A DNA stretch of 64,000 nt from a bacterium (lineage in GTDB: Bacteria > Myxococcota_A > UBA9160 > SZUA-336), in NCBI GenBank assembly GCA_041498295.1, contig JBGQIB010000004.1, positions 8 through 64,007 on the forward strand, written 5' to 3'. Below, piece after piece: positions 31,892-46,577 of this stretch. The translations under genes and the position numbers were made by a program. Position 1 is the stretch's first letter. Each line of letters starts with the position of its first letter. A model generated the notes under the pieces. The model had not been told where the DNA came from, did no database searches, and saw nothing but the letters and a program-made list of their open reading frames with translations.

Positions 31892-32083
31892 ATGCCCCTG
31901 GTGCACATCATTCTCGTCCTGATCGTCGTCGGCGTGCTGCTCTGGCTCGTCAACAACTACATCCCGATGGACGGCAAGATCAAGAACATCCTCAACGGCG
32001 TGGTCGTGATCGTCGTGGTGCTGTGGCTGCTGAACGTCTTCGGGCTGCTCTCCGGACTCTCCGGCATCCGCGTCGGGAGCTGA
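31892..32083 (+). CDS. Small (63 aa) two-helix membrane protein
   Basis: 'MPLVHIILVLIVVGVLLWLVNNYIPMDGKIKNILNGVVVIVVVLWLLNVFGLL'. Lower GC than its neighbours. Confidence 0.5.
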   Translation: MPLVHIILVLIVVGVLLWLVNNYIPMDGKIKNILNGVVVIVVVLWLLNVFGLLSGLSGIRVGS

Positions 32084-32103
32084 GCTCCGAGCGGATCGAG
32101 TCA

Positions 32104-32147: not shown

Positions 32148-32933
32148 CTAGCCGCCCGCCGCCGGGCGCGAGCCGCCTTCGATCCGGCCGAGCAAGCGCA
32201 GTAGCCCGTCCAGAATCGTGATCGGGTGGGGCGGACAGCCGGGGATGTAGAGATCGACCGGCACGACTGCGCTCGCGCCGTTCAGCACCTCGGGATGATC
32301 GATGTACGGGCCCCCCGAGATCGCGCACGCGCCCACGGCGATGACGAGCTTCGGCGCCGGCACCGCGGCCCAGGTCTTTTCCAGCGCGAGCCGCATGTTC
32401 TGACTCACCGCGCCCGTGATGAGCAGGCCGTCGGCGTGGCGCGGCGAAGCGACGAACGAGATGCCGAAACGCCCGAGGTCGAAGACCACGGTGCTCAGCA
32501 CGTTCACGTCGGCCTCGCACGCGTTGCAGCCGCCCGCGGAGACCTGGCGGAGCTTCAGAGAGCGGCCGAACAGGCGACGCATCTTAGTGTCGAGCGCGTC
32601 GGCGAGGCGCAAGGTCTCGTCGCGCAAGACCAGCGCTTCGCGTGTGCGCGTCGCGACCCGCCAGTCGCGCGTGAACTCGATCGCGCCTTCAGGGCACGCC
32701 TCGACGCAGTCCGTGCAGAAGAGACATTTGCCGAGATCCAGCTTCGGCCCCGCCTCGTCCGTGCTGAGCGCACCTGTCGGGCAGGCGTCGATGCAGGCGC
32801 GGCAGCCGTCGCGGCAGCGCGCGAAGTCGAGGGCCGGCGCGCCGCGCAGCCGGTCGGGAAGCCCCGGCTCGGCGTCGGGAAACGCGATCGTGCGCATTCC
32901 CTGAGCCCAGCGTGTGCGAAGGATCCTCCACAT
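32148..32933 (-). CDS. Fusion protein of a NuoI/HycF-like 2x[4Fe-4S] ferredoxin with a NuoB/HycG-like small subunit (Ehr/Hyf-type complex)
   Basis: ATG at 32933 with GGAGAA upstream. 'CRDGCRACIDACP' and 'CLFCTDCVEACP' are two ferredoxin motifs. 'GGCNACEADV', 'GACAISGGP' and 'IPGCPP' are the NuoB-type cluster ligands. Confidence 0.75.
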   Translation of the reverse strand: MWRILRTRWAQGMRTIAFPDAEPGLPDRLRGAPALDFARCRDGCRACIDACPTGALSTDEAGPKLDLGKCLFCTDCVEACPEGAIEFTRDWRVATRTREALVLRDETLRLADALDTKMRRLFGRSLKLRQVSAGGCNACEADVNVLSTVVFDLGRFGISFVASPRHADGLLITGAVSQNMRLALEKTWAAVPAPKLVIAVGACAISGGPYIDHPEVLNGASAVVPVDLYIPGCPPHPITILDGLLRLLGRIEGGSRPAAGG

Positions 32934-32950
32934 GACCGTTCTCCGACGAC

Positions 32951-34444
32951 CTAGAGGTCGAACCCGCAGTAGGAGAGGTTGAAGCTCTTGTTGCAGAGCG
33001 GGAAGTCCGAGATCTGCTGACCGCGCATGGCGAGCGCGACGCCCATCCAGTTGTGAAACGACGGGTCGACGACCTTGTAGCCGGCGAGGCGCCCCGTCGC
33101 GTCCGTCCAGCCCACGTGACAGATCTCGCCACGCCAACCCTCGACGAGCGAGACACAGAGCTGATCGGGCGCGAGTGACTCGCAGCTCGCGCGCGGCTCG
33201 CCCGCCGGCAAGCTCGCGAGCTGCTCGAGCGCGAACTCGGCCGAGCGGCGGATCTCGAGCCAACGCACGTAGGCGCGCGCGAACACGTCGCCGGAGTGCC
33301 ACGTCGCCGTCGGGATTTGCGCGACCCGGAACATGCCGGTCGGGTGGGTCGTGCGGATGTCGAGCGGCACACCGCAGGCGCGTGCGGCCGGGCCGACGAG
33401 ACCGATCTCCTCGGCCTGCTCGCGCGATAGGCGTCCTGTATCCTCGAAGCGCGACATCACCGACGGCGTGTCCCAGAGCAGGTCCGCGGCGGCGCCGACT
33501 TCGGCGACCGCAGTTCGGACGGCCTCGACCATGCGCTGCGCGCGCTTCGCGTCGACATCGAAGCCCACGCCGCCGGGGCGCACGAGGCTGCGCCCGAAAC
33601 GGTTCCCGCACAGCTCCGCCGAGAGGTTCAGCCAGTCGCCGCGCAACCGACCGCAGAATGCCGCGGTCGGCAGGAAGCCGACGTCGCCGGCGAGCGCACC
33701 CAGATCGCCGGTGTGATTCGCCACGCGCTCGAGCTCGAGTGCGACGGCGCGAAGCGCGTGCGCGCGCGCGGAGACCGGGCAATCGGACAACGCCTCGAGG
33801 ATCTGAACGTAGGCGGTGGCGTGACCAATCGTCGTGTCGCCCGCGAGTGTCTCGAAGTAGTGCAGCCGCCGCCGCTCCGCGCCTTCGAGAATCGCGCGCT
33901 CCACGCCGCGGTGCTGATAGCCGAGGGAGATCTCGAGATGCAGCACGCTCTCGCCGTGACACTGGAAGCGGAAGTGACCCGGCTCGATGACGCCCGCGTG
34001 CACCGGCCCGACGGCGACCTCGTGCACTTCCTCGCCCTCGACTCGATAGAAGTCCGCAATGCCGATCGGCGCAGGCGTTCCCGCTCGCGGCGGATAGCGC
34101 ACGGGCTTTCGCCACGGGTGCCCGTCGGGCTCGAGGCCGTACTGCTCGAAGATCTCGCGCTCGAACAGGTGGACACTCGGCAGGGATGGAGTCAGTGAGG
34201 GAAACGAGTGAGTCAGCGGCAGGCTCCGGCCGAGGCGGATCGAGCCGTCGCGGTCGGACGCGAGCGCGGCGACGAGTGAGACGCCGCCCGGTTCGCGCGT
34301 CCCGAAGAGCGCCGCCACGCGCTCGCCGCGTCGAACGCCTGCGAGCGTCGCGGCCTGAAGATCCGCGAGCTCTACGCACGGGACGTTGGCGATAGGAACC
34401 GCGCTGCCGCTCTGCGCGCGAAGAAAGGCGGTGGCTGCACTCAC
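32951..34444 (-). CDS. NuoC-NuoD / HycE-like fused 'large subunit' that lacks both Ni-Fe-binding CxxC motifs (hydrogenase-related, non-hydrogenase)
   Basis: GTG at 34444 overlaps the upstream TGA (GTGA). N-terminal 30-kDa-subunit-like block 'LFEREIFEQYGLEP'. The 49-kDa-like body carries 'ETLAGDTTIGHATAY' where [NiFe] large subunits have RxCGxCxxxH, and 'VDPSFHNWMG' where they have DPCxxCxxH/R. Confidence 0.75.
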   Translation of the reverse strand: MSAATAFLRAQSGSAVPIANVPCVELADLQAATLAGVRRGERVAALFGTREPGGVSLVAALASDRDGSIRLGRSLPLTHSFPSLTPSLPSVHLFEREIFEQYGLEPDGHPWRKPVRYPPRAGTPAPIGIADFYRVEGEEVHEVAVGPVHAGVIEPGHFRFQCHGESVLHLEISLGYQHRGVERAILEGAERRRLHYFETLAGDTTIGHATAYVQILEALSDCPVSARAHALRAVALELERVANHTGDLGALAGDVGFLPTAAFCGRLRGDWLNLSAELCGNRFGRSLVRPGGVGFDVDAKRAQRMVEAVRTAVAEVGAAADLLWDTPSVMSRFEDTGRLSREQAEEIGLVGPAARACGVPLDIRTTHPTGMFRVAQIPTATWHSGDVFARAYVRWLEIRRSAEFALEQLASLPAGEPRASCESLAPDQLCVSLVEGWRGEICHVGWTDATGRLAGYKVVDPSFHNWMGVALAMRGQQISDFPLCNKSFNLSYCGFDL

Positions 34445-35880
34445 CTCTGCCCCTCCACGGCCGAGGCGGCAGCGCGGAACAGCGCGAGCACCGGCTCCGG
34501 AATCCAGACGCCGAGCGCGAGCACCAACACCAAGAGCACCGCGATCGGCGCCACGGCCAGCCACCGGTCGCGATGCGGTTTCGCCGCGACGAGTTCGGGC
34601 GGCTCGCCTTGAACGACCGCGAGCACCGTCTGGCCCATGCCAACGAAGACGACGAGCAGAAGGCCGAGGAACAGCGCGGCCACCCCATAGCGCTCCGCGT
34701 GCATCATCGCGGAGAGGATCGTGAACTCACTCACGAACGTGCCGAACGGCGGGGTGCCGGTGGCTGCAAAGAAGCCCGCGAGAAACAGCGCCGCCGATGC
34801 GGGCAATACGCGCAGCGCGCCGCTTACGTCTGCGGTGCGCTTGCTGCCGAAGGCGCGGTGGAGGTTTCCCGCCGAGAGGAACAGCACGCCTTTCGAGAGT
34901 CCGTTGCTCACGAGGTGAAGCAAAGCGCCGAGGGTTCCGGCGCCGCCGATCGCGATGCCGAGCACGAGGATACCCATGTGCTCCACGCTCGAGTACGCGA
35001 GCATCCGCTTGTAGTCACCCTGTCTCACCATGAATGCGCCGGCGACGGCCATCGAGAACAAGCCGAGAAAGAGCAACGGGCCGCGCGCAAAGTCCGCCTC
35101 GCCGGCGGCCGCGCAGATTTGGAAGAATCGCAGGACCGCCGTGAACGCGCAGCTCGTAAGACCGCCCGCCAGGAGCGCACCGACCAGACCCGGCGCCTCG
35201 CCGTACGCGTCTGGCTTCCAGGTGTGCATGGGCGCGAGCCCCATCTTCGTGCCGTAGCCAACGAGAGCGAGCACGAAGCCCGAGTGGAGCCACGGGCGCG
35301 AGAGCTGGGGCGCGCTCGCGATCATGTCCGGCAGGAGCATCGACGGAGTGACTCCAGCCAGCAGCGCCGAGTACGCCGTGAAGAACGTACCGAGCAGCGC
35401 GAGCGCAATTCCGACCGATCCGATCAGGAGATACTTCCAGGTTGCCTCGATCGAGCGCGCGTTGCGGTTGAAATAGAGCAGCGGGCCGGAGGCGAGCGTG
35501 GTCGCCTCGACGGCGACCCAGAGCAGCCCGAGGTGCTGGGCGCCCGCGATCAGGTTCATCATCGCGAAGAACACCAGCATCACCGAGCAGAAGATCCGGT
35601 TCGGGCGCTCCACGCGCTGCGCCAGATAGCCGGGTGCGTAGGCGGCGCACAGGAAGAACAGCACGGCGAGATAGGTGGCGACGAGGCGGCCGAGCGCGTC
35701 GAGCGCGAGCCACGGGGCGCCGAACCCGCTGCCACGCCCGAGCAACTCGAGTGCGACGAGACCGAGCTGTGTCGCGCCCGCAGCGGGCAACAGCCACGGA
35801 CGCACCCGCTCCGACGGCGTGGCAAAGGCGAGCGCCGCGAAGGCGAGCGGCACGAGCACCAGCCAGGGCGCCACACTCAC
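34441..35880 (-). CDS. NuoN/NuoM/HyfF-like proton-pumping antiporter subunit
   Basis: 479 aa with about 14 helices. The MrpD/NuoN family blocks 'GLAPMHTWKPDAYGEAP' and 'YSSVEHMG' are conserved. Confidence 0.75.
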   Translation of the reverse strand: MSVAPWLVLVPLAFAALAFATPSERVRPWLLPAAGATQLGLVALELLGRGSGFGAPWLALDALGRLVATYLAVLFFLCAAYAPGYLAQRVERPNRIFCSVMLVFFAMMNLIAGAQHLGLLWVAVEATTLASGPLLYFNRNARSIEATWKYLLIGSVGIALALLGTFFTAYSALLAGVTPSMLLPDMIASAPQLSRPWLHSGFVLALVGYGTKMGLAPMHTWKPDAYGEAPGLVGALLAGGLTSCAFTAVLRFFQICAAAGEADFARGPLLFLGLFSMAVAGAFMVRQGDYKRMLAYSSVEHMGILVLGIAIGGAGTLGALLHLVSNGLSKGVLFLSAGNLHRAFGSKRTADVSGALRVLPASAALFLAGFFAATGTPPFGTFVSEFTILSAMMHAERYGVAALFLGLLLVVFVGMGQTVLAVVQGEPPELVAAKPHRDRWLAVAPIAVLLVLVLALGVWIPEPVLALFRAAASAVEGQR

Positions 35881-36518
35881 TCCCGCAGCGAGGTCAAGTG
35901 CTCCGTACTGAGCGACGAGAACTCGCGTTGAATGTGATCCATGATGATGCCCATCACGAAGACGGCGACGAAGAGGTCGAGCAGCACGCCGATCTCGACC
36001 AGGAACGGAATCGCTTCGACGAGGGTAAGCCCGAATACGAAGATTCCGTTCTCGAGCGTCAGATAGCCGATGACCTGCGTGATCGCCTTGCGCCGCGTCG
36101 TCAGCACCAGGAAGCCGGTCAGTACGGTGGCGAACGATGCTGGAACGATCAGGCTCCCTGCATGTTCGTCGAGCAGCGGTAGCGACCGAGAGAACACGAG
36201 CGACAAGCCCGTCGCGAGCGCCCCGAGCACGAGCGACGCGGTAAAGCCGACGAACGGCTCGATCTCACGCCGGATCGAGACGTTGCGCGTCGCACGTCGA
36301 AGGATCGCAGGGATCGCCACCCCCTTCAGCGCCGCGGTCGCGATCGACAACACGAGCACACGCGAGTTGGTCTGTCCGTGCGCCACGAACAGCGCCATGC
36401 CGAGCAAAATGCCCTGCATCCCCGCGAAATGAATCGCCGCGATCAAGCGGCTGGTTCCGAGCATCAAGAAATTCAGCAGCAACACGCCGACGAGCGCGAG
36501 ATCGAGAGTTTCTCCCAA
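35877..36518 (-). CDS. HyfE/hydrogenase-4 component E-like small membrane subunit
   Basis: 213 aa with 6-7 helices. Its size and position between the NuoH-like and NuoN-like genes match hyfE. Confidence 0.6.
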   Translation of the reverse strand: MGETLDLALVGVLLLNFLMLGTSRLIAAIHFAGMQGILLGMALFVAHGQTNSRVLVLSIATAALKGVAIPAILRRATRNVSIRREIEPFVGFTASLVLGALATGLSLVFSRSLPLLDEHAGSLIVPASFATVLTGFLVLTTRRKAITQVIGYLTLENGIFVFGLTLVEAIPFLVEIGVLLDLFVAVFVMGIIMDHIQREFSSLSTEHLTSLRE

Positions 36519-36522
36519 AGCC

Positions 36523-37437
36523 TCACCCCACCAAGAGCATCACGCCGAACGCGCTCAAGAGACTCGCGCCGACGAGCAAACTCGGAATGCGGAGCAGCGG
36601 CAAGCGCGCCATCAGCGACTCGATCAGGCCGACGAGAACCGAGAGCGCGATCAGCTCTGCGAGCGCGACGCCGATCCCGAGCGCTGCGCCGTCGACGTGG
36701 AAAGGCGTCGCGACGCGCACCAGCAAGAGCCCATACGCGAAGAGCTTCAGCGCCGCGCCGTACAAGATGAGTCCGAACGGCGGGCCGCTGTGATCCAGCG
36801 CCATCACTTCGTGAATCATCGTGAGCTCGAGGTGCGTGCTGGGGTCGTCGAACGGAATGCGGCTGTTCTCGGCGAGCAGCACGATCAAGAGCGATAGGGT
36901 GGCTAGACCGAGCGACGGCGCGGCGCGCGCCCAGAGCTCGGGAACCTCAGGCCCGAGCATCGCCCCGAGTGAGTAAGAGCCCGACAGCTTCACGAGCACG
37001 AGCAACGCGAAGAACGCCGCGGGCTCAGCCAGACACGAGAACGTCGCCTCGCGCGAGGCGCCCATGCCCTCGAACGCGGAGCCGGTGTCGAGCGCCGCAG
37101 CGATCGTGAAGAAGCGCCCGAGTCCCAGGAGATACGCGAAGGCGACGAGATCGCCGGGGAACGCGAACAGCGCGCCCCGCGCTCCGATCGGCACGAGCGA
37201 CGCAGCGAGAAGCGCCGTCGCGAGCGAGACGACCGGTCCCGCAAGAAAGACCCAGCTGGTCGTGCGGCTCCGCACCACCCCCTTCTGCAAGAGCCGCGCG
37301 AGGTCGAAGTAGGGCTGAAGGAGCGGCGGTCCGCGTCGACCCGCCATGCGCGCCTTGGTCCGGGCGATCACGCCGAGCATGAGTGGCGGGAAGAAGACGG
37401 GAAGCAGGAGCGCCGCCGCGACGTCTACGAGCGTCAT
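36523..37437 (-). CDS. NuoH/HyfC/HycD-like membrane subunit
   Basis: ATG at 37437 overlaps the upstream TGA (ATGA). 304 aa with NuoH family blocks 'QPYFDLARL' and 'ENSRIPFD'. Confidence 0.75.
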   Translation of the reverse strand: MTLVDVAAALLLPVFFPPLMLGVIARTKARMAGRRGPPLLQPYFDLARLLQKGVVRSRTTSWVFLAGPVVSLATALLAASLVPIGARGALFAFPGDLVAFAYLLGLGRFFTIAAALDTGSAFEGMGASREATFSCLAEPAAFFALLVLVKLSGSYSLGAMLGPEVPELWARAAPSLGLATLSLLIVLLAENSRIPFDDPSTHLELTMIHEVMALDHSGPPFGLILYGAALKLFAYGLLLVRVATPFHVDGAALGIGVALAELIALSVLVGLIESLMARLPLLRIPSLLVGASLLSAFGVMLLVG

Positions 37438-39440
37438 CGAGTCACTCCCGTCACGGCGAGCAGAGCGACGAGCGCGAGCCACACATACAGGAGGTACGCG
37501 TGGACGCTTCCCTGCTGCAGCACGCGAAGTCGGCCTGCGAGCTCCGCTAGCCCGCGCGCCGCGGGCACCACGAGCCGGTCGAGGACAGCATCGAGGACCT
37601 CGCTGTGGAACGTCGCGGGCCCGGGAAAGGTCGCCGCCAACCCCGGAGCGTGGACCCGTGGCCACAGCGCGAACGAGAACACGCGCACGAGCGGCGCGGC
37701 GAACGAGGAGGCCGAGTACTGCATTCGCGCGCTCGGAGCGCCGTAGCCGCAGTCCCAAGTTCCGGCGGCCGCGTGCTCCGCGCGCGCGAGGCGCGCGCGC
37801 AGCGCGAGGCCGATGCCCGCGCAGAGCGCGAGCACTGTGAGTGCGACGAGTGAGAAGGCGGCGAAGGGCGCGGAAAGGCCCGCGAGCGGAGTCCCGAGCG
37901 CGCTCGCCGCAGCCGCCGCGAGCGCGGGCGCGATCGCGAACGGCACGAGTCCGATCGCCGCGCACAGCGACGCGAGCAGCGCCATCGGCACAAGCATCAC
38001 GCCCGGAGCCTCATTCGTTCCGGTCAGCGCCCGCTGTCGCGGAGCGCCGAGAAACACGCTCCCGACGACCTTCGCGAAGCATGCGAGCGCGAGGCCGCCC
38101 GTCAGCGCGAGCGCCGGCGCCCCGAGGGCTGCGAGCACCCACACTGCGCCTCGCCCCGCGGCGACGACGCGCAGCAGTCCGGAGTAGACCAGGACCTCGC
38201 TCACGAAGCCGTTCAGCGGAGGCAGACCGACGATCGCGACGGCGCCGACGAGGAAGAAGCTCGCCGTCGCGGGCATCTCCTTCGCGATCCCGCCGAGCGC
38301 GTCGAGCGAGCGCGTGCCGGTGCGCTGGATGACGGCGCCTGCGCCCAGGAACAAGAGTCCCTTGAAGAGCGCGTGATTCACGACGTGCAGAAGGGCTCCA
38401 CTCATTGCGAGCGCCGCGGTGTCGAGGTCGCCGGCGGAGCGAGCCAGGAGCGCAACGCCGAGCCCGATCGCGATGATTCCGATGTTCTCGACGCTGTGAT
38501 ACGCGAGCAGCCGCTTCAAGTCGTGCTGCGCGAGCGCGTACGCGACTCCAAACACCGCGGATGCGATGCCCGCGACGAGCAGCGTCTCGCCCCACCAGAG
38601 CTGCGCGTCCGGTAGGAGGGAGACGACCCGCGCGATCCCGTAGATCCCCGACTTGATCAGCACGCCGGACAAGAGCGCCGAGACGTGCGTCGGGGCGGCC
38701 GCGTGCGCGGGCGGCAACCAGACGTGCAAAGGCACCAGGCCGGCCTTCAGCCCGAAGCCGACGAGCGCGAGCACGAAGAGCGCCGATTGGATCCCCGGCG
38801 CGATGCCCCCTACACGAACCGGTGTCCACTCGAACGATCCGGTCGCTGCAAAGAACAGCGCGAACAGCGCGAGCAGACAGAGCGTGCTGGCGCGCGTGCT
38901 CACGAGATAGAGAAAACCCGCGTCGCGTACGCCCGCGTCGTGCTCCTCGGCCGTGACGGCGAAGAAGGCGGCGATCGCCATGAGCTCCCAGCCGGCGAGG
39001 AACACCAGAGAGTGTCGCGCGACCAGCACGGAGACGAGGCCGGCGCTCGCGAGCCCGAACGAGACCCGAAGCCGCTCCGCGTTGCGCGGGTGGTCTTTGG
39101 CCGGAAAGTACGCAAGCGAGTAGAGCGCACACGCGGCGCTGAGCACCGCTACGGGAACGAGAAATAGCCCGGACAGCGCGTCGACCCCGACGACGAGCGC
39201 GCCGCCCGGAAAGCCGGCCGCGAACCTGAGTTCGTCGCCGCCGCCGGTGAGCGCAAGGATCGCCGCCGCGAGATCGATGGCGGCGCCCGAGACGAGCACG
39301 GCCACGCCGATTCGATCCGCTCGCCTCGGCCCGGCTCGGCGCGCGCAGAGCGCGGCGAAGCCGCTGGCTCCGATCCCCACGGCGCCGACCAGCGCGAGCA
39401 GCGTCGTCAACGACCGATCACCTCGCGCAGCGAAGCCCAT
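37434..39440 (-). CDS. NuoL/HyfB-like antiporter subunit (paralogue 2)
   Basis: 668 aa, NuoL/MrpA family, with 'LVPLHVWLPPAHAAAPTHVSALL' and 'YHSVENIG'. The ATG at 39440 overlaps the upstream gene by 34 bp. A TTG at 39410 would instead give a TTGA overlap. Confidence 0.75.
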   Translation of the reverse strand: MGFAARGDRSLTTLLALVGAVGIGASGFAALCARRAGPRRADRIGVAVLVSGAAIDLAAAILALTGGGDELRFAAGFPGGALVVGVDALSGLFLVPVAVLSAACALYSLAYFPAKDHPRNAERLRVSFGLASAGLVSVLVARHSLVFLAGWELMAIAAFFAVTAEEHDAGVRDAGFLYLVSTRASTLCLLALFALFFAATGSFEWTPVRVGGIAPGIQSALFVLALVGFGLKAGLVPLHVWLPPAHAAAPTHVSALLSGVLIKSGIYGIARVVSLLPDAQLWWGETLLVAGIASAVFGVAYALAQHDLKRLLAYHSVENIGIIAIGLGVALLARSAGDLDTAALAMSGALLHVVNHALFKGLLFLGAGAVIQRTGTRSLDALGGIAKEMPATASFFLVGAVAIVGLPPLNGFVSEVLVYSGLLRVVAAGRGAVWVLAALGAPALALTGGLALACFAKVVGSVFLGAPRQRALTGTNEAPGVMLVPMALLASLCAAIGLVPFAIAPALAAAAASALGTPLAGLSAPFAAFSLVALTVLALCAGIGLALRARLARAEHAAAGTWDCGYGAPSARMQYSASSFAAPLVRVFSFALWPRVHAPGLAATFPGPATFHSEVLDAVLDRLVVPAARGLAELAGRLRVLQQGSVHAYLLYVWLALVALLAVTGVTR

Positions 39441-41398
39441 GCCAGCGCCGCGACGACGGCCACCATGATGTAGGCGACGTACAGGTGTGCGTTCCCCTGC
39501 TGCAGCAAGCGCAGGCGCGTGAGGTAACTCGCGGCCGCCGCAAGAAGCGGCTCGTAGATGCGCGCGACGATGGGCTCCTCGTATCCCGCACGGAGCGACG
39601 CCGGCCCAGGGGTGACTCCGCGCAATGCGGGTTCGATGGTCCGCGGCGCCAAGACTCGGGGCAGTACGCCGCTCGCGAACAGCTGCGAGAATGAGTGGGC
39701 GGTGTACTGCATGCGCGAGCTAGGCGCTGTGTAGCCGCACGCCCAGGTTTCATCCTCTGCGCGCGCGCCGCTGCGAACCCGCGCGACGAGCAGCGTCGCG
39801 ACGACGGCGACGGCGAGCCAGAGCGCGAGCGACAGCGTGGCGAGAGGCCTGAGTGCGAGCGAGGCGTTCGTCAGCCCGCTCGCTCCGCTCTGGCTGCCCA
39901 GCAGCTCGCCGAGGGGCGCGCCGACGCCGCGAAGCGCGAGTGAGGGCGCGAGGCCGATCGCGACGCAGAGCAGAGCGAGTCCCGCCATGACGGCGAACAT
40001 CGATCCGCCGACGTCGTGCGCGCGCTTCGCGGCCTCGCTTCGCGCCTGGCCGAGAAACACCATCCCGAACAAACGAACGAAAGCCGCCGCGCCGAGCGCA
40101 CCGACCAGCGCGAGCAGCCCGAGCGCGAGCGACGCGACGACGGATCCGAGCGAACTCCCGTCCGTCACCGCGTGAAGGAAACCGAGATACAGGAGCCACT
40201 CACTCGCGAATCCGTTGAGCGGCGGGAGCGCGCCGAGCGCGACGGCTCCGAGCGCGAAGACCACGGCGAGGCGCGGCATCTGGCGCGCCAAGCCCCCGAG
40301 GCGCTCGAGGTCGCGCGTTCCGGCGCCGTGTTGAACCCCGCCCGCCGCGAAGAACAACAGGCCCTTCATCGCCGCGTGATTCCAGATGTGGAAGAGTCCC
40401 GCGGACAGCCCGAGCACCGCGAGCACGCCGTCGCCGCGTGCGAGCGCGGCGAGCCCGACGCCGAGGCCGAGACCGATCAGCCCGAGATTCTCGACGCTGG
40501 AGTGCGCGAGCGCTCGCTTCAGATCGCGCTGCGCAAGCGAGAGAGCGATCCCGAGCAACGCACCGACGAGCCCGAGGGCCGCGAGCGACAGACCGAACGC
40601 CGCGGGCGCGCCTCCAAGCAGCCACACGACGCGCAGCAGCCCGTAGTAGCCGAGCTTCACCATCGCGCCCGACATCAGCGCAGATACATGAGACGGCGCC
40701 GCGGCGTGCGCTTCGGGCAGCCAGACGTGCAGCGGGACGATGCCAGCCTTCACACCGAAGCCGACGAGCGCCAGCGCGAGAAGCGTGCCCGGGCTCGCCG
40801 CCGCGGACGTGAGCGCGGTGCCGGACGCTCCGCCGAGTGAGTCGCCGAGAAGCACGAAGAGCGCGAGCAGCGCGGCAGTGCCCATGTGCGATGCGACCAG
40901 ATAGATCCAACCCGCCCGCCGCGCTTCGGCGCGCTCGTGTTCGAAGGTCACGAGCAGATACGCGCAGAGCGACATGGTCTCCCAGGCGACGAGAAACAGA
41001 ATGCCGTTGCGCGCCAGGGTCACCGCGATCATGGCGGCGCAGAGCCCGTTGAAGAAGAGCCAGCTCACTCCGGCCCGACGCGGGTTGCCGTAGCTCGCGA
41101 GATAGGCGCGGCCGTAGAGCGCCGCGAGCGCCGAGAGCCCGAGCACCGGAACCAGAAAGAACGCCGACAGCGGATCGAGCCCGAATGACAGCGCGCCGCC
41201 GGGCAGGCTCCAGGGAAGCTCTGCGCGCAGCTCCACTCCTCCAGACAGCACGCGGACGACCGGCAGCAATCCGAGCAGCGCGGCGAGCGGCGCGCCGGCG
41301 CAGCCGAGTGCGGCGGACCAACGGGGCGAGCGCGCACTCGCGACCGCTGCGAGCCCCGAGGCGAGCAGAAGGGCGCACGCCGCGAGGAGCGCCGTCAT
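39407..41398 (-). CDS. NuoL/HyfB-like antiporter subunit (paralogue 1)
   Basis: 663 aa with 'IVPLHVWLPEAHAAAPSHVSALM' and 'HSSVENLG'. The ATG overlaps the upstream HTH-EIIA gene stop (ATGA). Confidence 0.75.
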   Translation of the reverse strand: MTALLAACALLLASGLAAVASARSPRWSAALGCAGAPLAALLGLLPVVRVLSGGVELRAELPWSLPGGALSFGLDPLSAFFLVPVLGLSALAALYGRAYLASYGNPRRAGVSWLFFNGLCAAMIAVTLARNGILFLVAWETMSLCAYLLVTFEHERAEARRAGWIYLVASHMGTAALLALFVLLGDSLGGASGTALTSAAASPGTLLALALVGFGVKAGIVPLHVWLPEAHAAAPSHVSALMSGAMVKLGYYGLLRVVWLLGGAPAAFGLSLAALGLVGALLGIALSLAQRDLKRALAHSSVENLGLIGLGLGVGLAALARGDGVLAVLGLSAGLFHIWNHAAMKGLLFFAAGGVQHGAGTRDLERLGGLARQMPRLAVVFALGAVALGALPPLNGFASEWLLYLGFLHAVTDGSSLGSVVASLALGLLALVGALGAAAFVRLFGMVFLGQARSEAAKRAHDVGGSMFAVMAGLALLCVAIGLAPSLALRGVGAPLGELLGSQSGASGLTNASLALRPLATLSLALWLAVAVVATLLVARVRSGARAEDETWACGYTAPSSRMQYTAHSFSQLFASGVLPRVLAPRTIEPALRGVTPGPASLRAGYEEPIVARIYEPLLAAAASYLTRLRLLQQGNAHLYVAYIMVAVVAALAWASLREVIGR

Positions 41399-42096
41399 GC
41401 GGTCGGCGAATTCGTTTCAGTGGCGAAGCCGGACTCTACTCGGCGCAGCACCGCCGCAATCTCATCTGGCGGTGCGCGCCGCTCGAGGACGCGGCGGAAG
41501 GCGGGGTCGTGCAGCGCTGCAGACAACCGCGAAAGCAGCCGCAGATGTGTACGACTGGTCGGAGTCACGATCACGAACAGGATCCCGACCGGCTTCCCGT
41601 CGAGCGCGCCGAACGGGATCGGCTCCTCGAGAAAGCAGAGCGCGACCGCGGGTCGCACGTGCAGCAGCACCGGGTTGCGAACATGCGGGATCGCGATGCC
41701 ATCGCCGATCGCCGTAGACCCGAGGTTCTCGCGCGCGAGCAGCACCTCGTAGAGAAACTCGCGGTCTACTTCCTCGGGGAGCTCGAGCACGCGCACGACG
41801 TCGCGCAGCACCGTCTCGCGATCGGCGCCGCCCTTCATGAAGTGGATGCCTCCGGCCTCGAGCGCGTCCTCCAATGTCGGAAGCGGCGCCTCCTCTCGGG
41901 AGGGTTCCGAGAAGAGCTCCGCGGATACGCGCACCCCTTGAGCCGTCGCCCATTCCAGCAGCTCTGCGCGATTGAAACGGTGCTGCCCGTGCGCGCGGTG
42001 GACGGGGAGACCTCGATCGTCGATCCAACGGTAGATCGTCTTATCGGGAACACCGAGCAGACGCGCGGCGTCCCGCACCGTGATCTTGACCCCCAC
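41395..42096 (-). CDS. Regulatory protein with an N-terminal MerR/excisionase-type HTH and a C-terminal PTS EIIA(Fru/Ntr)-like domain
   Basis: 'ITVRDAARLLGVPDKTIYRWIDDRGLPVHR' is an HTH. The C-terminal 150 aa contain 'AIGDGIAIPH', the EIIA type-2 phosphorylatable-His motif. It is the first gene of the membrane-complex operon. Confidence 0.65.
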   Translation of the reverse strand: MGVKITVRDAARLLGVPDKTIYRWIDDRGLPVHRAHGQHRFNRAELLEWATAQGVRVSAELFSEPSREEAPLPTLEDALEAGGIHFMKGGADRETVLRDVVRVLELPEEVDREFLYEVLLARENLGSTAIGDGIAIPHVRNPVLLHVRPAVALCFLEEPIPFGALDGKPVGILFVIVTPTSRTHLRLLSRLSAALHDPAFRRVLERRAPPDEIAAVLRRVESGFATETNSPTA

Positions 42097-42409
42097 CGGC
42101 AGCTCTCCGCCCGCGAGATCCGCAGGCGCGTCGGTTGTTTAGAGCGGGTCGCCGTTGCTGTCAACCGACCGCGATCGAGGTGTGAGCGGGGCCGCGGGCT
42201 GCCGCGCGCTGATTCCCTCGCCCAGCGTGATCCCGACCTTCGGCTCGAGCTGGCATTCGTGGGCGCCGCGGTCACCAAAACCATCCGGACCGACTCACTC
42301 CGGACCGCCCTCCGAATCCGTGCACAGAAATACTCTCGCGCGAGTCCGGGGTGCCGTAACCCCGTCTACGAGATTTCTCTTTTCCATTGCCGGGGCCAAG
42401 GCTGAGAAT

Positions 42410-43096
42410 GTGGCGGTGAGTCACGTGTGGCGGCCGTGGGCGTTCGGTCTGTTGGAACTCGGGTTTGCGTTTTCGTTCGCGGCGACTCCGGATGCGGCGA
42501 CCACCACTTGGTACTTCGAGGGCGTGGTTCGCGAGGTGGTCGAGGCGCCGGAGCTGACTCCGCTCGGTGTGACTCCGGGCACGGCATTCTCCGCGACGAT
42601 CTCGCTCGAGTCATCGATCGCCAACGACTCGGCGGACCCGGACTCCACCGACTACCCAGGCGCCATCCTCGCGGCTGACTTCAACGCCGGCACGTATCAC
42701 CTCTCGATCCAACCGAACCCGGGGTTGTCTCTCCTCCAGGTGTTCGCGCCGATCCCATTGCTCATCGCGCAGGGCGTGCGACTCGAGCCTGTCGGCTCTC
42801 CGCTAGAGAACCTTCTGGTCGAGCTGAGGGCCTTCGGAATCGCCCCCGGGGTCTTCGCGTTGGATGCAATGCCGATCGATCCGCCGTCGCTGGACGACCT
42901 GGCCCCATACCCGGAGTTGCCATCCGGCGTAGGCACGGCTCTTACGATCTCCGGCCATCACGACGGCATCGGTCACTACATGCAAGCCGAGATCACTCGC
43001 TGGGAGCGCGTGCCTGAGCCCGCCACGGGCGCGCTCGTGGGTCTCGTTCTTCTTGCGCCGCACGCGCTGCGACTCAGGAGGCGCCGGGCAGCTTGA
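42410..43096 (+). CDS. PEP-CTERM sorting-signal protein (secreted/exosortase substrate)
   Basis: The C-terminus 'VPEPATGALVGLVLLAPHALRLRRRRAA*' is a textbook PEP motif plus transmembrane helix plus Arg cluster. GTG at 42410 gives signal peptide 'VAVSHVWRPWAFGLLELGFAFSFAATP'. AAGG lies 9 nt upstream and the 5' region is low in GC. Confidence 0.6.
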   Translation: MAVSHVWRPWAFGLLELGFAFSFAATPDAATTTWYFEGVVREVVEAPELTPLGVTPGTAFSATISLESSIANDSADPDSTDYPGAILAADFNAGTYHLSIQPNPGLSLLQVFAPIPLLIAQGVRLEPVGSPLENLLVELRAFGIAPGVFALDAMPIDPPSLDDLAPYPELPSGVGTALTISGHHDGIGHYMQAEITRWERVPEPATGALVGLVLLAPHALRLRRRRAA

Positions 43097-45010: not shown

Positions 45011-45903
45011 ACGCCAGGCTCGACTGGTTCGGCTGCGCGACTTTCCGACTCACGATCGGAGAGCTCGTGATCTTCCTCGACGCCTACCTCGACCGGGTGC
45101 CGGCCGCGCCGCAAGTCGGGCTGCGCCCCGAAGAGGTCGAGCGTGCGGACTGGATCGTCGTGGGGCACTCGCACTTCGACCATCTCTACGGCGCGGAGCG
45201 GATCGCGAAGCGCACCGGCGCGAAGATCCTCGGCTCGCACGAGACGGTGAGGATCATGGAGGCGCAGGGCGTTCCGATCGAGCAGATGATCGCCGTGGCG
45301 GGAGGCGAGCGCGTGCGGCTCTCCGACGACGTGGTCGTCGACGTCTATCCGAGCCAACACTCCTGTGTTTGGTCACAGGGCGCCATGAGTCCGAGCGACG
45401 AGGTCTGCATCGGCGACCTCGGACTGACTTGGCAAGAACAGCAAGTGCGCTTCCGCGGCCTCGCCGCGCACTTCGGAACGCTCGGCCCGGAGGTGCTCGC
45501 CCATCTCTTGGCCAGCGCGCAGGGCCCGCGCGGAGATGGCGGCGCGCTGGTGTACCACTTCCGCACCGCGCAGGGATCCCTCTTCTACCAGGATACGTCG
45601 GGTCACTGGAGCGGAATCCTGCGCGACCTGCGGCCCGACGTCGCGATCCTGGCCGCCGCGGGCCGGGGCAACGTCGACGGCGAGCCGATCCAGGGCTCCC
45701 TCGCACAGTTCGTCGCGCGCCAGGTCGACTTACTCCGCCCCCGCCGCGTGTTTCTCGGACACCACGACGACTGGCTGCCCGGCTTCTCGCGCGCCATCGA
45801 TGTGAAGCCAATCCGCGAAGAGATCGCGCGCCTGCGGCCTGCCACCGAGCTCGTCGAAACGGGCTACGGTGCTGCATTCCCGCTCTTCAAGGGGAGAACA
45901 TGA
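45007..45903 (+). CDS. MBL-fold metallo-hydrolase
   Basis: 'IVVGHSHFDHLYGAERIA' is the HxHxDH motif. The C-terminal 'HHDDW' is a metal ligand. A TTG at 45007 overlaps the upstream stop (TTGA). There is no in-frame ATG nearby. Confidence 0.6.
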   Translation: MNARLDWFGCATFRLTIGELVIFLDAYLDRVPAAPQVGLRPEEVERADWIVVGHSHFDHLYGAERIAKRTGAKILGSHETVRIMEAQGVPIEQMIAVAGGERVRLSDDVVVDVYPSQHSCVWSQGAMSPSDEVCIGDLGLTWQEQQVRFRGLAAHFGTLGPEVLAHLLASAQGPRGDGGALVYHFRTAQGSLFYQDTSGHWSGILRDLRPDVAILAAAGRGNVDGEPIQGSLAQFVARQVDLLRPRRVFLGHHDDWLPGFSRAIDVKPIREEIARLRPATELVETGYGAAFPLFKGRT

Positions 45904-46577
45904 AGCGCTCGGCGGCGGCTCTGGCCGTGGTTCTCTCGGCTCTGGCATCGGTCGCGGGCGCTCAGGCCCAAGTCCAGACTCAGGAGTCACAGGCCGCGAT
46001 GACTCCGGCGCTGGCGCTCGAGCGGCTGCGCGACGGCAACGCGCGCTTCAGCGCGAATGCGACCAAGGCGCGCGACTGGTCGGCGAAGGTCGCGGCCACC
46101 GCGTCGGGTCAGTTCCCGTTCGCGGCGGTGCTCGCGTGCATGGACTCGCGCGCGCCGGTCGAGATCGTCTTCGACCAGGGCCTCGGCGACGTGTTCGGCG
46201 TGCGCGTCGCGGGAAACGTCGTGAACGACGACGAGCTCGGGAGCCTCGAATACGCCGCCAAGGTGGGCGCGAAGCTGATCGTGGTGCTCGGCCACACGCG
46301 CTGCGGCGCGGTGAGGGGCGCCATCGAGGGCGTCGAGCTCGGCAACTTGACCGGGTTACTCGCGAAGATCCACCCGGCCGTGGAAGCGGCGAAGTGCAGC
46401 GACGCCAAGAGCGACGCCTGTGTCACTTCGGTCGCCGAGCAGAACGTGCGCCAGTCGATGCGCGAGATCCGCGCGCGCAGCCCCTATCTCAGAAAGTATC
46501 TGGACGAGGGGAAGATCCAGCTGGTCGGCGCCATGTACGAGGTCGAGACGGGCCGGGTGACGTTTCTGAATCCCTAG
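45900..46577 (+). CDS. Beta-class carbonic anhydrase with an N-terminal signal peptide
   Basis: ATG at 45900 is preceded by GGGGAGA and overlaps the MBL stop (ATGA). 'MKRSAAALAVVLSALASVAGAQA' is a signal peptide. 'CMDSRAPVE' and 'GHTRCGAV' are the beta-CA zinc-ligand blocks. Confidence 0.8.
   Translation: MKRSAAALAVVLSALASVAGAQAQVQTQESQAAMTPALALERLRDGNARFSANATKARDWSAKVAATASGQFPFAAVLACMDSRAPVEIVFDQGLGDVFGVRVAGNVVNDDELGSLEYAAKVGAKLIVVLGHTRCGAVRGAIEGVELGNLTGLLAKIHPAVEAAKCSDAKSDACVTSVAEQNVRQSMREIRARSPYLRKYLDEGKIQLVGAMYEVETGRVTFLNP

Follow-up and report, generated by a model that had tools for sequence, protein, structure and literature searches.

The known PtsN proteins work by protein-protein contact and not by binding DNA, and KdpD, TrkA, and SpoT are partners that EIIA(Ntr) reaches in this way. 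Passages in two articles describe the same action of EIIA(Ntr) through protein binding (PMC9239096, PMC4848567). The protein examined here, referred to as HTH-EIIA, is encoded in a 64-kb stretch of DNA (the window) and shares PF00359 with PtsN; its EIIA domain is 27-31% identical to PtsN structures, with a TM score of at most 0.80, and keeps the active-site Arg, His, and His. It differs in carrying an N-terminal DNA-binding domain within 233 aa, whereas PtsN is a stand-alone protein of about 150-160 aa. In addition, its gene sits in an Ehr operon and not beside rpoN, and its scores fall short of the PtsN equivalog cutoffs (TIGR01419, 68.5 vs 138.7 bits; NF008145, 61.3 vs 221 bits).

MtlR, LicR, ManR, and LevR are DNA-binding regulators set by PTS-type phosphorylatable domains, including PTS_EIIA_2. 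HTH-EIIA follows the same principle of a DNA-binding domain joined to a PTS_EIIA_2 input, but it has no PRD, EIIB-like, or AAA+ domains (Pfam, E <= 0.01), has only 233 aa, uses an excisionase/MerR-like HTH, and has as its predicted target a respiratory-type complex instead of a sugar operon. Those regulators belong to Firmicutes, whereas HTH-EIIA is found in Myxococcota, the PVC group, Acidobacteriota, and others. Sugar PTSs are not known to be common in Planctomycetota, Verrucomicrobiota, Acidobacteriota, and Myxococcota.

For the DNA-binding half, the nearest counterpart is BldC, which we take to be a member of PF12728. On direct repeats, this MerR-like wHTH protein assembles into head-to-tail multimers (PMC5859096). 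HTH-EIIA likewise has a small, BldC/Xis-type wHTH without the MerR coiled coil, and its predicted multi-protomer target consists of phased direct repeats. In contrast, BldC has no sensor domain and reads an AATT-N4-C repeat, while the array described below is built of T(G/T)GACA and forms two opposed repeat pairs that bracket the promoter.

Among operons of the group-4-hydrogenase type, E. coli hyc and hyf have dedicated regulators in FhlA and HyfR, which are formate-responsive, sigma-54 enhancer-binding activators. HTH-EIIA resembles them in being dedicated to such an operon, but no sigma-54 activator gene lies within the HTH-EIIA/Ehr module. Widely distributed, Ehr complexes are related to both complex I and group-4 hydrogenases. 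With reference to Marreiros et al. 2013, PMC6349859 describes them as energy-converting hydrogenase-related complexes with group-4-like and antiporter-like subunits and no Ni/Fe ligands. The genes downstream of HTH-EIIA match that description, in which a PTS-type regulator gene is not mentioned. Our search of the searchable full-text literature found no description of an HTH-EIIA regulator of Ehr/Hyf-like operons.

Domain structure of HTH-EIIA and the operon downstream

The features of the locus are collected in Table 1. Profile searches bear out the original prediction of an HTH fused to an EIIA type-2 domain: the N-terminal part matches PF12728 HTH_17 (Pfam, 53.5 bits vs a cutoff of 27, 2.9e-14) and the TIGR01764 excisionase-type domain (NCBIfam, 51.3 bits vs 28.8, 1.1e-13), and the C-terminal part matches PF00359 PTS_EIIA_2 (Pfam, 92 bits vs 27, 4.3e-26). 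In the AF2 model, the HTH is arranged as helix-helix-hairpin-helix, and no long helix follows the wing, unlike the coiled-coil dimerization helix of MerR. The HTH sequence also gives weak matches to RacA and to a CarH-like HTH. Assignment as a classical MerR regulator was rejected (PF00376, 21.2 vs 28.2; PF13411, 18 vs 21.6).

The EIIA(Ntr/Mtl) fold is supported by the AF2 model (pLDDT 82) and by a Foldseek match to 3urr_A (E 4e-9, TM 0.80 on target); the top PDB matches of this domain, by sequence and by fold, are the PtsN structures 3urr, 4gqx, 2a0j, and 1a6j, and SLC4 cytoplasmic domains are also among the fold matches. The nearest database protein (P0001) is 97% identical. Names given to such proteins in databases, "PTS sugar transporter subunit IIA" or "nitrogen regulatory IIA component," are uninformative, and the two-domain reading corrects them.

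Table 1. Positions in the window of the HTH-EIIA gene, its upstream elements, and the genes of the Ehr operon
Feature	Position	Strand	Basis or remark
-35-like hexamer TTGACA, 68 nt before the GTG start	42159..42164	-	invariant in the window's subclade
-10-like hexamer TAAACA, 17 nt after TTGACA	42136..42141	-	TAA(A/T)CA in the subclade
Leader inverted repeat CGCGCCTGCG-N5-CGCGGGCG	42108..42130	-	conserved, directly upstream of the GGAG ribosome-binding site
HTH_17 + PTS_EIIA_2 fusion CDS	41395..42096	-	233 aa, GTG start; ORF list and profile matches
Excisionase-type/MerR-like winged HTH domain, residues 6-53	41938..42081	-	Pfam HTH_17, TIGR01764
EIIA(Ntr/Fru)-type domain, residues 83-218	41443..41850	-	Pfam PTS_EIIA_2; PtsN structure matches
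His138 codon, predicted phospho-acceptor in GIAIPH	41683..41685	-	aligned to the GVAIPH His of PtsN
ATGA stop/start overlap, HTH-EIIA gene/first HyfB-like gene	41395..41398	-	TGA stop over ATG
HyfB/NuoL-like antiporter-type subunit 1, 663 aa	39407..41398	-	Proton_antipo_M 1.7e-46
HyfB/NuoL-like subunit 2	37434..39440	-	profile matches; start ATG 39440 or TTG 39410
NuoH/HyfC-like subunit	36523..37437	-	PF00146 3.7e-31
HyfE-like small membrane subunit	35877..36518	-	weak PF00420 match; conserved in 70 loci
HyfF/NuoN-like subunit	34441..35880	-	PF00361 9.9e-43
NuoCD/HycE-like large subunit without NiFe-ligand cysteines	32951..34444	-	P0391 100% identical, 497 aa
Fused NuoI-like (2 x CxxCxxCxxxCP) and NuoB-like subunit, cluster cysteines kept	32148..32933	-	profiles

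The operon downstream encodes a group-4-hydrogenase-like subunit set with antiporter-like subunits. Its first member matches NF005086 (hydrogenase-4 subunit B) with 545 bits, below the cutoff, and for the second the TTG start at 39410, which overlaps the preceding stop, is more likely than the ATG at 39440. In an alignment of the large subunit with HycE (7z0s_E), "RVCGICGFAH" is replaced by "TLAGDTTIGH" and the C-terminal "DPC" by "NLS"; with CGIC changed to AGDT, the four Ni/Fe-binding cysteines are absent. With the NiFe cysteines of HycE missing from this subunit, the "Ehr" label is right. The proposed ATGA overlap between the HTH-EIIA stop and the first NuoL-like start is confirmed (TCAT on the + strand at 41395-41398), and a 4-nt stop/start overlap recurs in 58 of 140 evaluable orthologous loci, with a gap of at most 30 nt in 108 of 140.

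Occurrence of the gene with Ehr modules

The original prediction proposed co-occurrence of the fusion with Ehr operons as a check, and it is found in most of the sampled loci. In 78 of 80 genome loci, which span at least 12 bacterial phyla, the HTH-EIIA gene directly precedes HyfB-C-E-F-G-HI homologues encoded on its own strand. Similarly, it is the first gene of the Ehr operon in 56 of 58 evaluable loci of an independent metagenome set, which holds only one close relative of the window and was used as an independent replicate. A reciprocal search starting from the large subunit again found the gene at the head of the operon (3/3 loci), and a genome scan, with at least 593 hits, placed the regulator-carrying module in more than 500 species-level genomes. 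All-vs-all clustering of flanking ORFs detected no gene beyond the 7-8-gene module that is conserved across phyla.

The case that would have spoken against the original prediction, a widespread fusion with no link to such operons, holds only for a distant paralogous HTH-EIIA family, at about 26% identity, and for a few orphan orthologues: L070 and L161 lack Ehr genes, and L171 precedes a SulP transporter and retains the promoter box. It does not hold for the orthologue group as a whole. These comparisons support the view that, across many phyla, the Ehr operon includes the fusion as a dedicated and conserved component.

Identity across phyla is 53-64% for HTH-EIIA and 52-63% for the large subunit, a level unusually high for a plain repressor that counts against such a role, as does the coupling of the gene to the operon in the manner of a subunit gene. 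Two long calls that resembled regulator-subunit fusions, P0340 (836 aa) and a 717-aa call in L175, were rejected as frameshift/assembly artefacts, and no natural fusion of HTH-EIIA to an Ehr subunit was found among the orthologues.

A phased promoter element and the leader of the window

A conserved element of T(G/T)GACA half-sites in 10-bp phase lies upstream of most orthologues. Counted from a -35-like TTGACA hexamer, forward half-sites lie at 0 and +10 and reverse half-sites at +28 and +38, and the positions +10, +28, +38, and +61 are fixed; TTGACA-N22-TGTCCAAAGATGTCCAAAG is an example of the canonical box (L044/L078-type). The -35/-10 spacer measures 16-18 bp, and the center of the array falls near -10. 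Neither this length (19-20 bp in MerR) nor the placement of the array suits a MerR spacer-distortion mechanism, which was rejected. In sequence, the half-site is close to the sigma-70 -35 consensus, with which it overlaps, and to direct repeats of the Pho-box-like or OmpR/PhoB type.

The element is strongly enriched. TTGACA occurs in 95 of 163 orthologue upstream regions, mostly at -80 to -70, compared with 5.5 in shuffles, and TGGACA/TGTCCA occurs in 64 of 84 compared with at most 28. The density of the latter reaches 7.5/kb upstream vs 0.38/kb across the remaining 1.37 Mb of locus sequence, and 5.1/kb vs 0.36/kb in the metagenome replicate, so that the half-site hexamer is 14-20x enriched upstream of orthologues. 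Pairs in 10-bp phase were found upstream in 34 loci and only once elsewhere. The exact hexamer is absent in about 30-40% of loci outside the window's subclade.

A conserved operator-like element placed over the promoter argues for genuine DNA binding by the HTH and for regulation of the operon by its own product, and we predict that HTH-EIIA is the reader of T(G/T)GACA. Loss of the motif is accompanied by S17P, which replaces the N-cap residue of the recognition helix: 1 of 12 loci with proline has the motif, compared with 109 of 152 loci with other residues (Fisher p = 2e-5, a value without correction for phylogeny).

The window belongs to a high-GC subclade that carries S17P. TGGACA/TGTCCA half-sites are absent upstream in the window and in its closest relatives (L007, L087, L089, and L090), and a search for TGTCCA-N4-TGTCCA with at most 2 mismatches gave 0 matches in the window. 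The original prediction, which suggested that the complex is under a phosphorylation-dependent switch of the nitrogen-PTS type, is partly supported: it gains from an operator-like element that covers the promoter in most lineages, but the canonical operator is absent from the window's own subclade. What this subclade does keep is the pair of promoter-like hexamers and the leader inverted repeat listed in Table 1. Around 41900-42600, a simple scan for sigma-70 promoters and terminators gave no match, and TAAACA fails such a scan because its last base is A.

The inverted repeat is a candidate for a subclade-specific operator or an RNA hairpin. RNAalifold returned a weak stem for the leader (covariation term -0.08, one compensatory pair, from five sequences only), and Rfam gave zero matches in the whole 64-kb window. 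DNA binding by the window's copy is predicted from homology and the conserved leader.

Proposed control of the operon and competing readings

HTH-EIIA is probably a one-component, operon-specific, autoregulated repressor of the Ehr operon that is switched through its EIIA domain. As the product of the first cistron of the operon that it would regulate, it would bind the operon's own promoter through its N-terminal winged HTH, with the forward half-sites (0, +10) covering the -35 hexamer and spacer and the reverse ones (+28, +38) covering the -10 and start-site region. This two-fold symmetric layout over the whole core promoter fits the cooperative binding of about four protomers, repression, and negative autoregulation. 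The C-terminal EIIA(Ntr)-like domain would serve as the input module: phosphoryl transfer to His138 from an HPr/NPr-type carrier, itself fed by EI and PEP, may alter oligomerization or DNA affinity. With such an input, synthesis of a ferredoxin-type, ion-translocating complex would track the PEP/pyruvate (or nitrogen-PTS) state. Both the equation of binding with repression and the nature of the signal are what we infer from sequence.

If so, HTH-EIIA would be the first regulatory handle on Ehr, and the signal that it suggests would be the PEP/pyruvate or nitrogen-PTS state of the cell. A conserved regulator, an EIIA(Ntr)-type sensor, and an operator architecture together make the question of when and why Ehr is made testable, and PTS-domain control of transcription would be extended to a minimal two-domain form.

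The predicted phosphorylatable His in GIAIPH is indeed present, and GDGIAIPHVRNP in the EIIA domain aligns to GEGVAIPHGR of the PtsN structures 3urr and 4gqx, which sets His138 against the PtsN His. R122, His138, and W24 are invariant in 167 of 167 orthologues, and H184 is kept in 166. R122, H138, and H184 form the residue set expected for phosphotransfer, and the site is, by alignment, intact; phosphorylation of His138, with an HPr/NPr-type carrier as the donor, is predicted. An extended HVRNP motif and a second invariant His, His146, are atypical for PtsN.

Partner genes were sought in the window and about 170 loci by tblastn, the queries being the HPr, NPr, and EI proteins of E. coli and B. 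subtilis. No PTS gene was detected in the 64-kb window with these queries. HPr-family genes adjoin the operon in L057 and L058 (TIGR01003, 87 and 67.5 bits, cutoff 47.9), and an EI-like gene is divergent from it in L120, so partners are adjacent in 3 of about 170 loci only; the chance expectation for adjacent HPr/EI, by our own estimate, is roughly 0.3-0.5 loci. A link to sigma-54 was rejected, since only 5 of about 176 loci have a neighboring activator gene, about chance level, and the suggestion that control is not of the sigma-54/FhlA type holds for the operon.

HTH-EIIA could be a transcription factor whose EIIA fold senses a metabolite or protein independently of phosphorylation and of a PTS phosphorelay, a possibility that we consider unlikely. 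It would account for the lack of PTS components among the genes of the window, for HVRNP and His146, and for scores far under the PtsN equivalog cutoffs, and SLC4 cytoplasmic domains do reuse the EIIA fold without phosphotransfer; however, the near-complete conservation of R122, H138, and H184 speaks against it, as do HPr/EI neighbors in three unrelated loci, above our estimate for chance.

A broader and rather improbable proposal is that HTH_17-EIIA proteins form a previously unrecognized class of minimal PTS-coupled one-component regulators, and that the Ehr-linked orthologue is bifunctional, alternating between DNA-bound and docked states. In one phosphorylation state, a multimer on the T(G/T)GACA array would shut the promoter; in the other, the protein would be off the DNA and docked on the Ehr complex or on HPr/NPr. 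Through such a switch, the PEP/pyruvate state would determine how much of an ancient, complex-I-like ion pump is made and how active it is, which, if true, would be the first physiological clue to the purpose of Ehr complexes.

It is rather improbable that HTH-EIIA acts, mainly or additionally, within the Ehr complex as a regulatory or accessory subunit, with an HTH that is secondary or serves for sequestration on DNA and an EIIA domain that gates activity by docking on an antiporter-like subunit or the peripheral arm. The 4-nt overlaps chain its gene to the operon as they do structural genes, gene and module occur one-to-one across phyla, cross-phylum identity equals that of the large subunit, and EIIA(Ntr) offers a precedent for action by protein contact. 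Yet the winged HTH is intact, highly conserved, and accompanied by a matching promoter element, and HTH-EIIA has no membrane anchor. Orthologues also exist apart from Ehr genes (L070, L161, and L171, the last with its box before the transporter gene), and natural subunit fusions number zero once P0340 is set aside as a frameshift artefact.

Finally, it is highly improbable that another regulator (e.g., OmpR/PhoB-type) reads the T(G/T)GACA array, or that the array is mere promoter architecture and the target of HTH-EIIA is unrelated: the half-site does resemble the -35 consensus and Pho-box-like repeats, and the window's subclade carries the gene but lacks the array; against this, the HTH-EIIA gene is the sole constant partner of the array across at least 12 phyla, the spacing is 10 bp rather than 11, reverse sites lie downstream of -10, array loss tracks the recognition-helix substitution, and the array is kept before the orphan L171, which has a different downstream gene.

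The putative regulator gene and its operon

The product of the gene heading the operon matches HTH_17 at residues 6-53 (53.5 bits, cutoff 27) and PTS_EIIA_2 at residues 83-218 (92 bits, cutoff 27) in Pfam, so the HMM search suggested with the original prediction bears out its claim of a helix-turn-helix fused to a type-2 EIIA domain. Among NCBIfam models, the excisionase-type domain TIGR01764 exceeds its own cutoff, and the protein scores far under the equivalog cutoffs of the PtsN and FruA EIIA models. Its top solved-structure matches are the EIIA(Ntr) proteins 3urr, 4gqx, 2a0j and 1a6j, on whose GEGVAIPHGR the query's GDGIAIPHVR aligns; the GIAIPH histidine singled out earlier thus falls on the GVAIPH motif of PtsN structures. 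An AlphaFold2 model (62 input sequences, pLDDT 82) predicts a helix-helix-hairpin-helix N-domain, a low-confidence linker (residues 63-72) and an EIIA fold, and Foldseek again ranks these PtsN structures highest, at TM 0.76-0.80 on the target.

Downstream on this strand lie seven genes: two HyfB/NuoL-like, one NuoH/HyfC-like, one HyfE-like, one HyfF/NuoN-like, a NuoCD/HycE-like large subunit, and a fused NuoI-like/NuoB-like subunit in which two CxxCxxCxxxCP motifs and the NuoB-type cysteines are retained. When the large subunit is aligned with HycE (7z0s_E), AGDT replaces CGIC and NLS replaces the C-terminal DPC, so the complex cannot bind Ni-Fe yet retains an Fe-S chain, as an Ehr complex is defined in the literature (PMC6349859). 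The forward strand reads TCAT at 41395-41398; therefore, as anticipated, the regulator's TGA overlaps the ATG of the first HyfB/NuoL-like gene. Most operon junctions, this one included, are 4-nt overlaps: the regulator gene is coupled exactly as the structural genes are, and nearly the whole operon is chained in this way. An MMPL gene and an EF-G gene lie after the operon, and a PEP-CTERM gene lies divergently upstream.

Features of the window, and of loci holding relatives of the regulator (L numbers, genome or metagenome loci)
Feature	Position	Strand	Remark
HTH-EIIA regulator CDS	41395..42096	-	GTG start, 233 aa
First HyfB/NuoL-like gene	39407..41398	-	
4-nt start/stop overlaps (within 32148-41398)	41395-41398; 39407-39410; 37434-37437; 35877-35880; 34441-34444	-	ATGA; TTGA; ATGA; overlap; GTGA
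Inverted repeat CGCGCCTGCG-N5-CGCGGGCG	42108-42130	-	conserved in subclade leader
TAA(A/T)CA	42136-42141		17 nt after GTTGACAG
GTTGACAG	42159-42164		invariant in subclade upstream regions
ORF ending in PEP-CTERM sorting signal	42155-43096	+	divergent; TIGR02595 18.8 bits, cutoff 16; real start probably near 42440
Beta-class carbonic anhydrase	45369-46577	+	Pro_CA 2.3e-37; apparent signal peptide; ~3.3 kb upstream of operon
64-aa hydrophobic ORF	31897-32089	+	convergent with operon end; no family match
HPr-family gene	L057:20368-20640		directly after operon
HPr-family gene	L058:5795-6082		directly before regulator gene; GLHVLAA for GxHARPA; preceded by histidine kinase and sigma-54 response regulator
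EI-like gene	L120:56-1189		divergent from regulator gene
Orthologue with SulP/STAS transporter	L171:2794-5469		
Orphan orthologues without downstream Ehr genes	L070:2327-4029; L161:3000-3690		L070, divergent HTH-EIIA paralogue adjoins; L161, terminator-like hairpin follows
Duplicate HTH-EIIA genes before operon	L004:10001-11564; L079:9147-10687; L077:2084-5284		tandem or nearby; second copies 32-50% identical to query

Linkage to Ehr operons across bacteria

Relatives of the regulator number 7179 matches in 90% clusters at E <= 1e-5 and 352 clusters at 50% identity with E <= 1e-30, and are named only "PTS sugar transporter subunit IIA" or "nitrogen regulatory IIA component" in the databases. 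Three long contigs whose flanks are unrelated have the gene at the head of the same operon. With one genome scanned per species, at least 593 relatives were found, and in 78 of the best 80 the full HyfB-C-E-F-G-HI series lies directly downstream on the same strand; the exceptions are one contig end and one orphan copy (L070). The loci represent Myxococcota, Planctomycetota, Verrucomicrobiota, Acidobacteriota, Lentisphaerota, Spirochaetota, Latescibacterota, Zixibacteria, Desulfobacterota, Methylomirabilota, Binatia, Eisenbacteria and Omnitrophota. Linkage recurs in 56 of the 58 evaluable loci of an independent metagenome set (80 loci), and a reverse search from the large subunit found the HTH-EIIA gene in first position in 3/3 loci, so the suggested check of co-occurrence comes out positive in all three comparisons. 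Clustering of all flanking ORFs revealed no further gene conserved across phyla around the module, which is therefore a self-contained unit of 7-8 genes. The 4-nt regulator/HyfB overlap is present in 58 of 140 evaluable loci (gap <=30 nt in 108), and cross-phylum identity of the regulator (53-64%) matches the large subunit's (52-63%).

We favor, with moderate confidence, the explanation that the HTH-EIIA protein is an operon-specific PTS-type transcription factor of the Ehr operon. Its translational coupling to the operon, one-to-one occurrence with the module and high conservation also suggest a subunit-like role in the complex, a less likely reading that could coexist with DNA binding. Two apparent HTH-EIIA/HyfB fusion proteins, the database entry P0340 (836 aa) and L175:2333-4486 (717 aa), were rejected as frameshift or assembly artefacts rather than Rosetta-stone evidence.

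Paralogous HTH_17-PTS_EIIA_2 proteins, about 26% identical and mainly from Phycisphaerae, keep the histidine (GGVAIPH); their genes stand alone, in neighborhoods that vary and have no link to Ehr. The Ehr-linked proteins thus form one tightly conserved set of orthologues within a wider class of regulators built on this fusion. The original prediction would have been refuted by a fusion common and unlinked to such operons elsewhere; this is the situation of the paralogues and of a few orphan orthologues, not of the orthologue group. As a PTS-controlled transcription factor the regulator would resemble MtlR/LicR, but without their PRD and EIIB modules it falls outside that family. Although the sensor resembles EIIA(Ntr), the protein is not a PtsN orthologue, and its HTH is like that of BldC/Xis, unlike classical MerR. 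No description of this regulator or its operator was found in the searchable literature.

Two further neighbors may be functionally linked to the module or may reflect synteny within lineages. A small Zn_ribbon_9 (HP0958-like) gene lies directly after the operon in Verrucomicrobiota (L021, L023, L027, L044, L046, L048, L052, L073 and L078; about 8.1-8.4 kb after the regulator start), with a similar gene just upstream in L049 and L176, and 8 loci have a putative Rex-like repressor downstream, an ORF assigned by visual reading of its sequence.

The EIIA domain and its proposed PTS input

R122 and H138 are invariant in 167 aligned orthologues and H184 is present in 166; by sequence, these are the residues that a working EIIA phosphotransfer site has. 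HPr-family genes adjoin the module in L057 and L058 (TIGR01003, 87 and 67.5 bits, cutoff 47.9), and the EI-like gene of L120 is 40% identical to E. coli EI over 378 aa; by our estimate, chance alone would give fewer than one such adjacency. The 64-kb window itself contains no PTS gene. The conserved residues and the HPr/EI neighbors thus make phosphorylation by HPr/NPr the best-supported interpretation. The PEP/pyruvate ratio would make physiological sense as the signal for this ferredoxin-type complex because, we infer, pyruvate oxidation yields reduced ferredoxin. A less probable reading is that the EIIA domain acts as a phosphorylation-independent sensor.

The promoter array and its probable reader

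Upstream regions that are otherwise not alignable between phyla share a TGGACA/TGTCCA hexamer, present in 64 of 84 against at most 28 in shuffled sequences. Per kb, it occurs 7.5 times within the 160 bp upstream versus 0.38 times across the 1.37 Mb of locus sequence that remains (5.1 versus 0.36 in a metagenome replicate), and 10-bp-phased pairs occur upstream in 34 loci and elsewhere once. TTGACA is found in 95 of 163 upstream regions, versus a mean of 5.5 in shuffles; it mostly lies 70-80 nt ahead of the start codon, and is followed after 16-18 nt by TAnnn(T/A) in 52 of those 95. Measured from TTGACA, TGGACA sits at +10 (15 loci), TGTCCA at +28 (24) and +38 (30), and TGGACA at +61 (5). These fixed offsets therefore define two forward and two reverse half-sites, symmetric about +21.5; by its motifs, the array appears to place the forward pair over the -35 and spacer and the reverse pair over the -10/start region (typical examples are L044, L078, L056 and L074).

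This geometry would suit cooperative binding of several winged-helix protomers, as in the MerR-like protein BldC, which binds direct repeats cooperatively as several protomers (PMC5859096). It implies that bound regulator would occlude the core promoter, giving repression with autoregulation. The 16-18-nt spacer and the off-centre symmetry axis argue against a classical MerR spacer-twisting activator.

Three observations support reading of the array by the HTH. The HTH-EIIA gene is the only gene that always accompanies it. Most orthologues have Ser at residue 17, which caps the N-terminus of the recognition helix (S-E-K-T-I-Y-R-W-I); of the loci with Pro17, 1 of 12 has the hexamer, versus 109 of 152 otherwise (Fisher p 2e-5, a statistic that ignores kinship). 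The L171 orthologue, 51% identical, has a SulP/STAS anion transporter downstream in place of Ehr genes and retains the TTGACA...TGTCCA arrangement upstream; this regulator type appears to have been recruited there to another membrane transporter. Together they make it unlikely that a different factor reads the array.

The window copy belongs to a high-GC, Myxococcota-like subclade with L007 (75% identity), L087, L089 and L090; P0398 and P0399, its close relatives by large subunit, carry the name Myxococcota. The subclade regulator has Pro17 and altered wing residues (HRAHGQHRF for YRVNEQYRF), and canonical half-sites were not found in the upstream regions of the window and its subclade relatives. 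Besides the tabulated motifs, these regions have in common a GGAG ribosome-binding site. The leader repeat shows one compensatory change (in L087) among five sequences, a pattern compatible with an RNA hairpin as well as with a palindromic operator.
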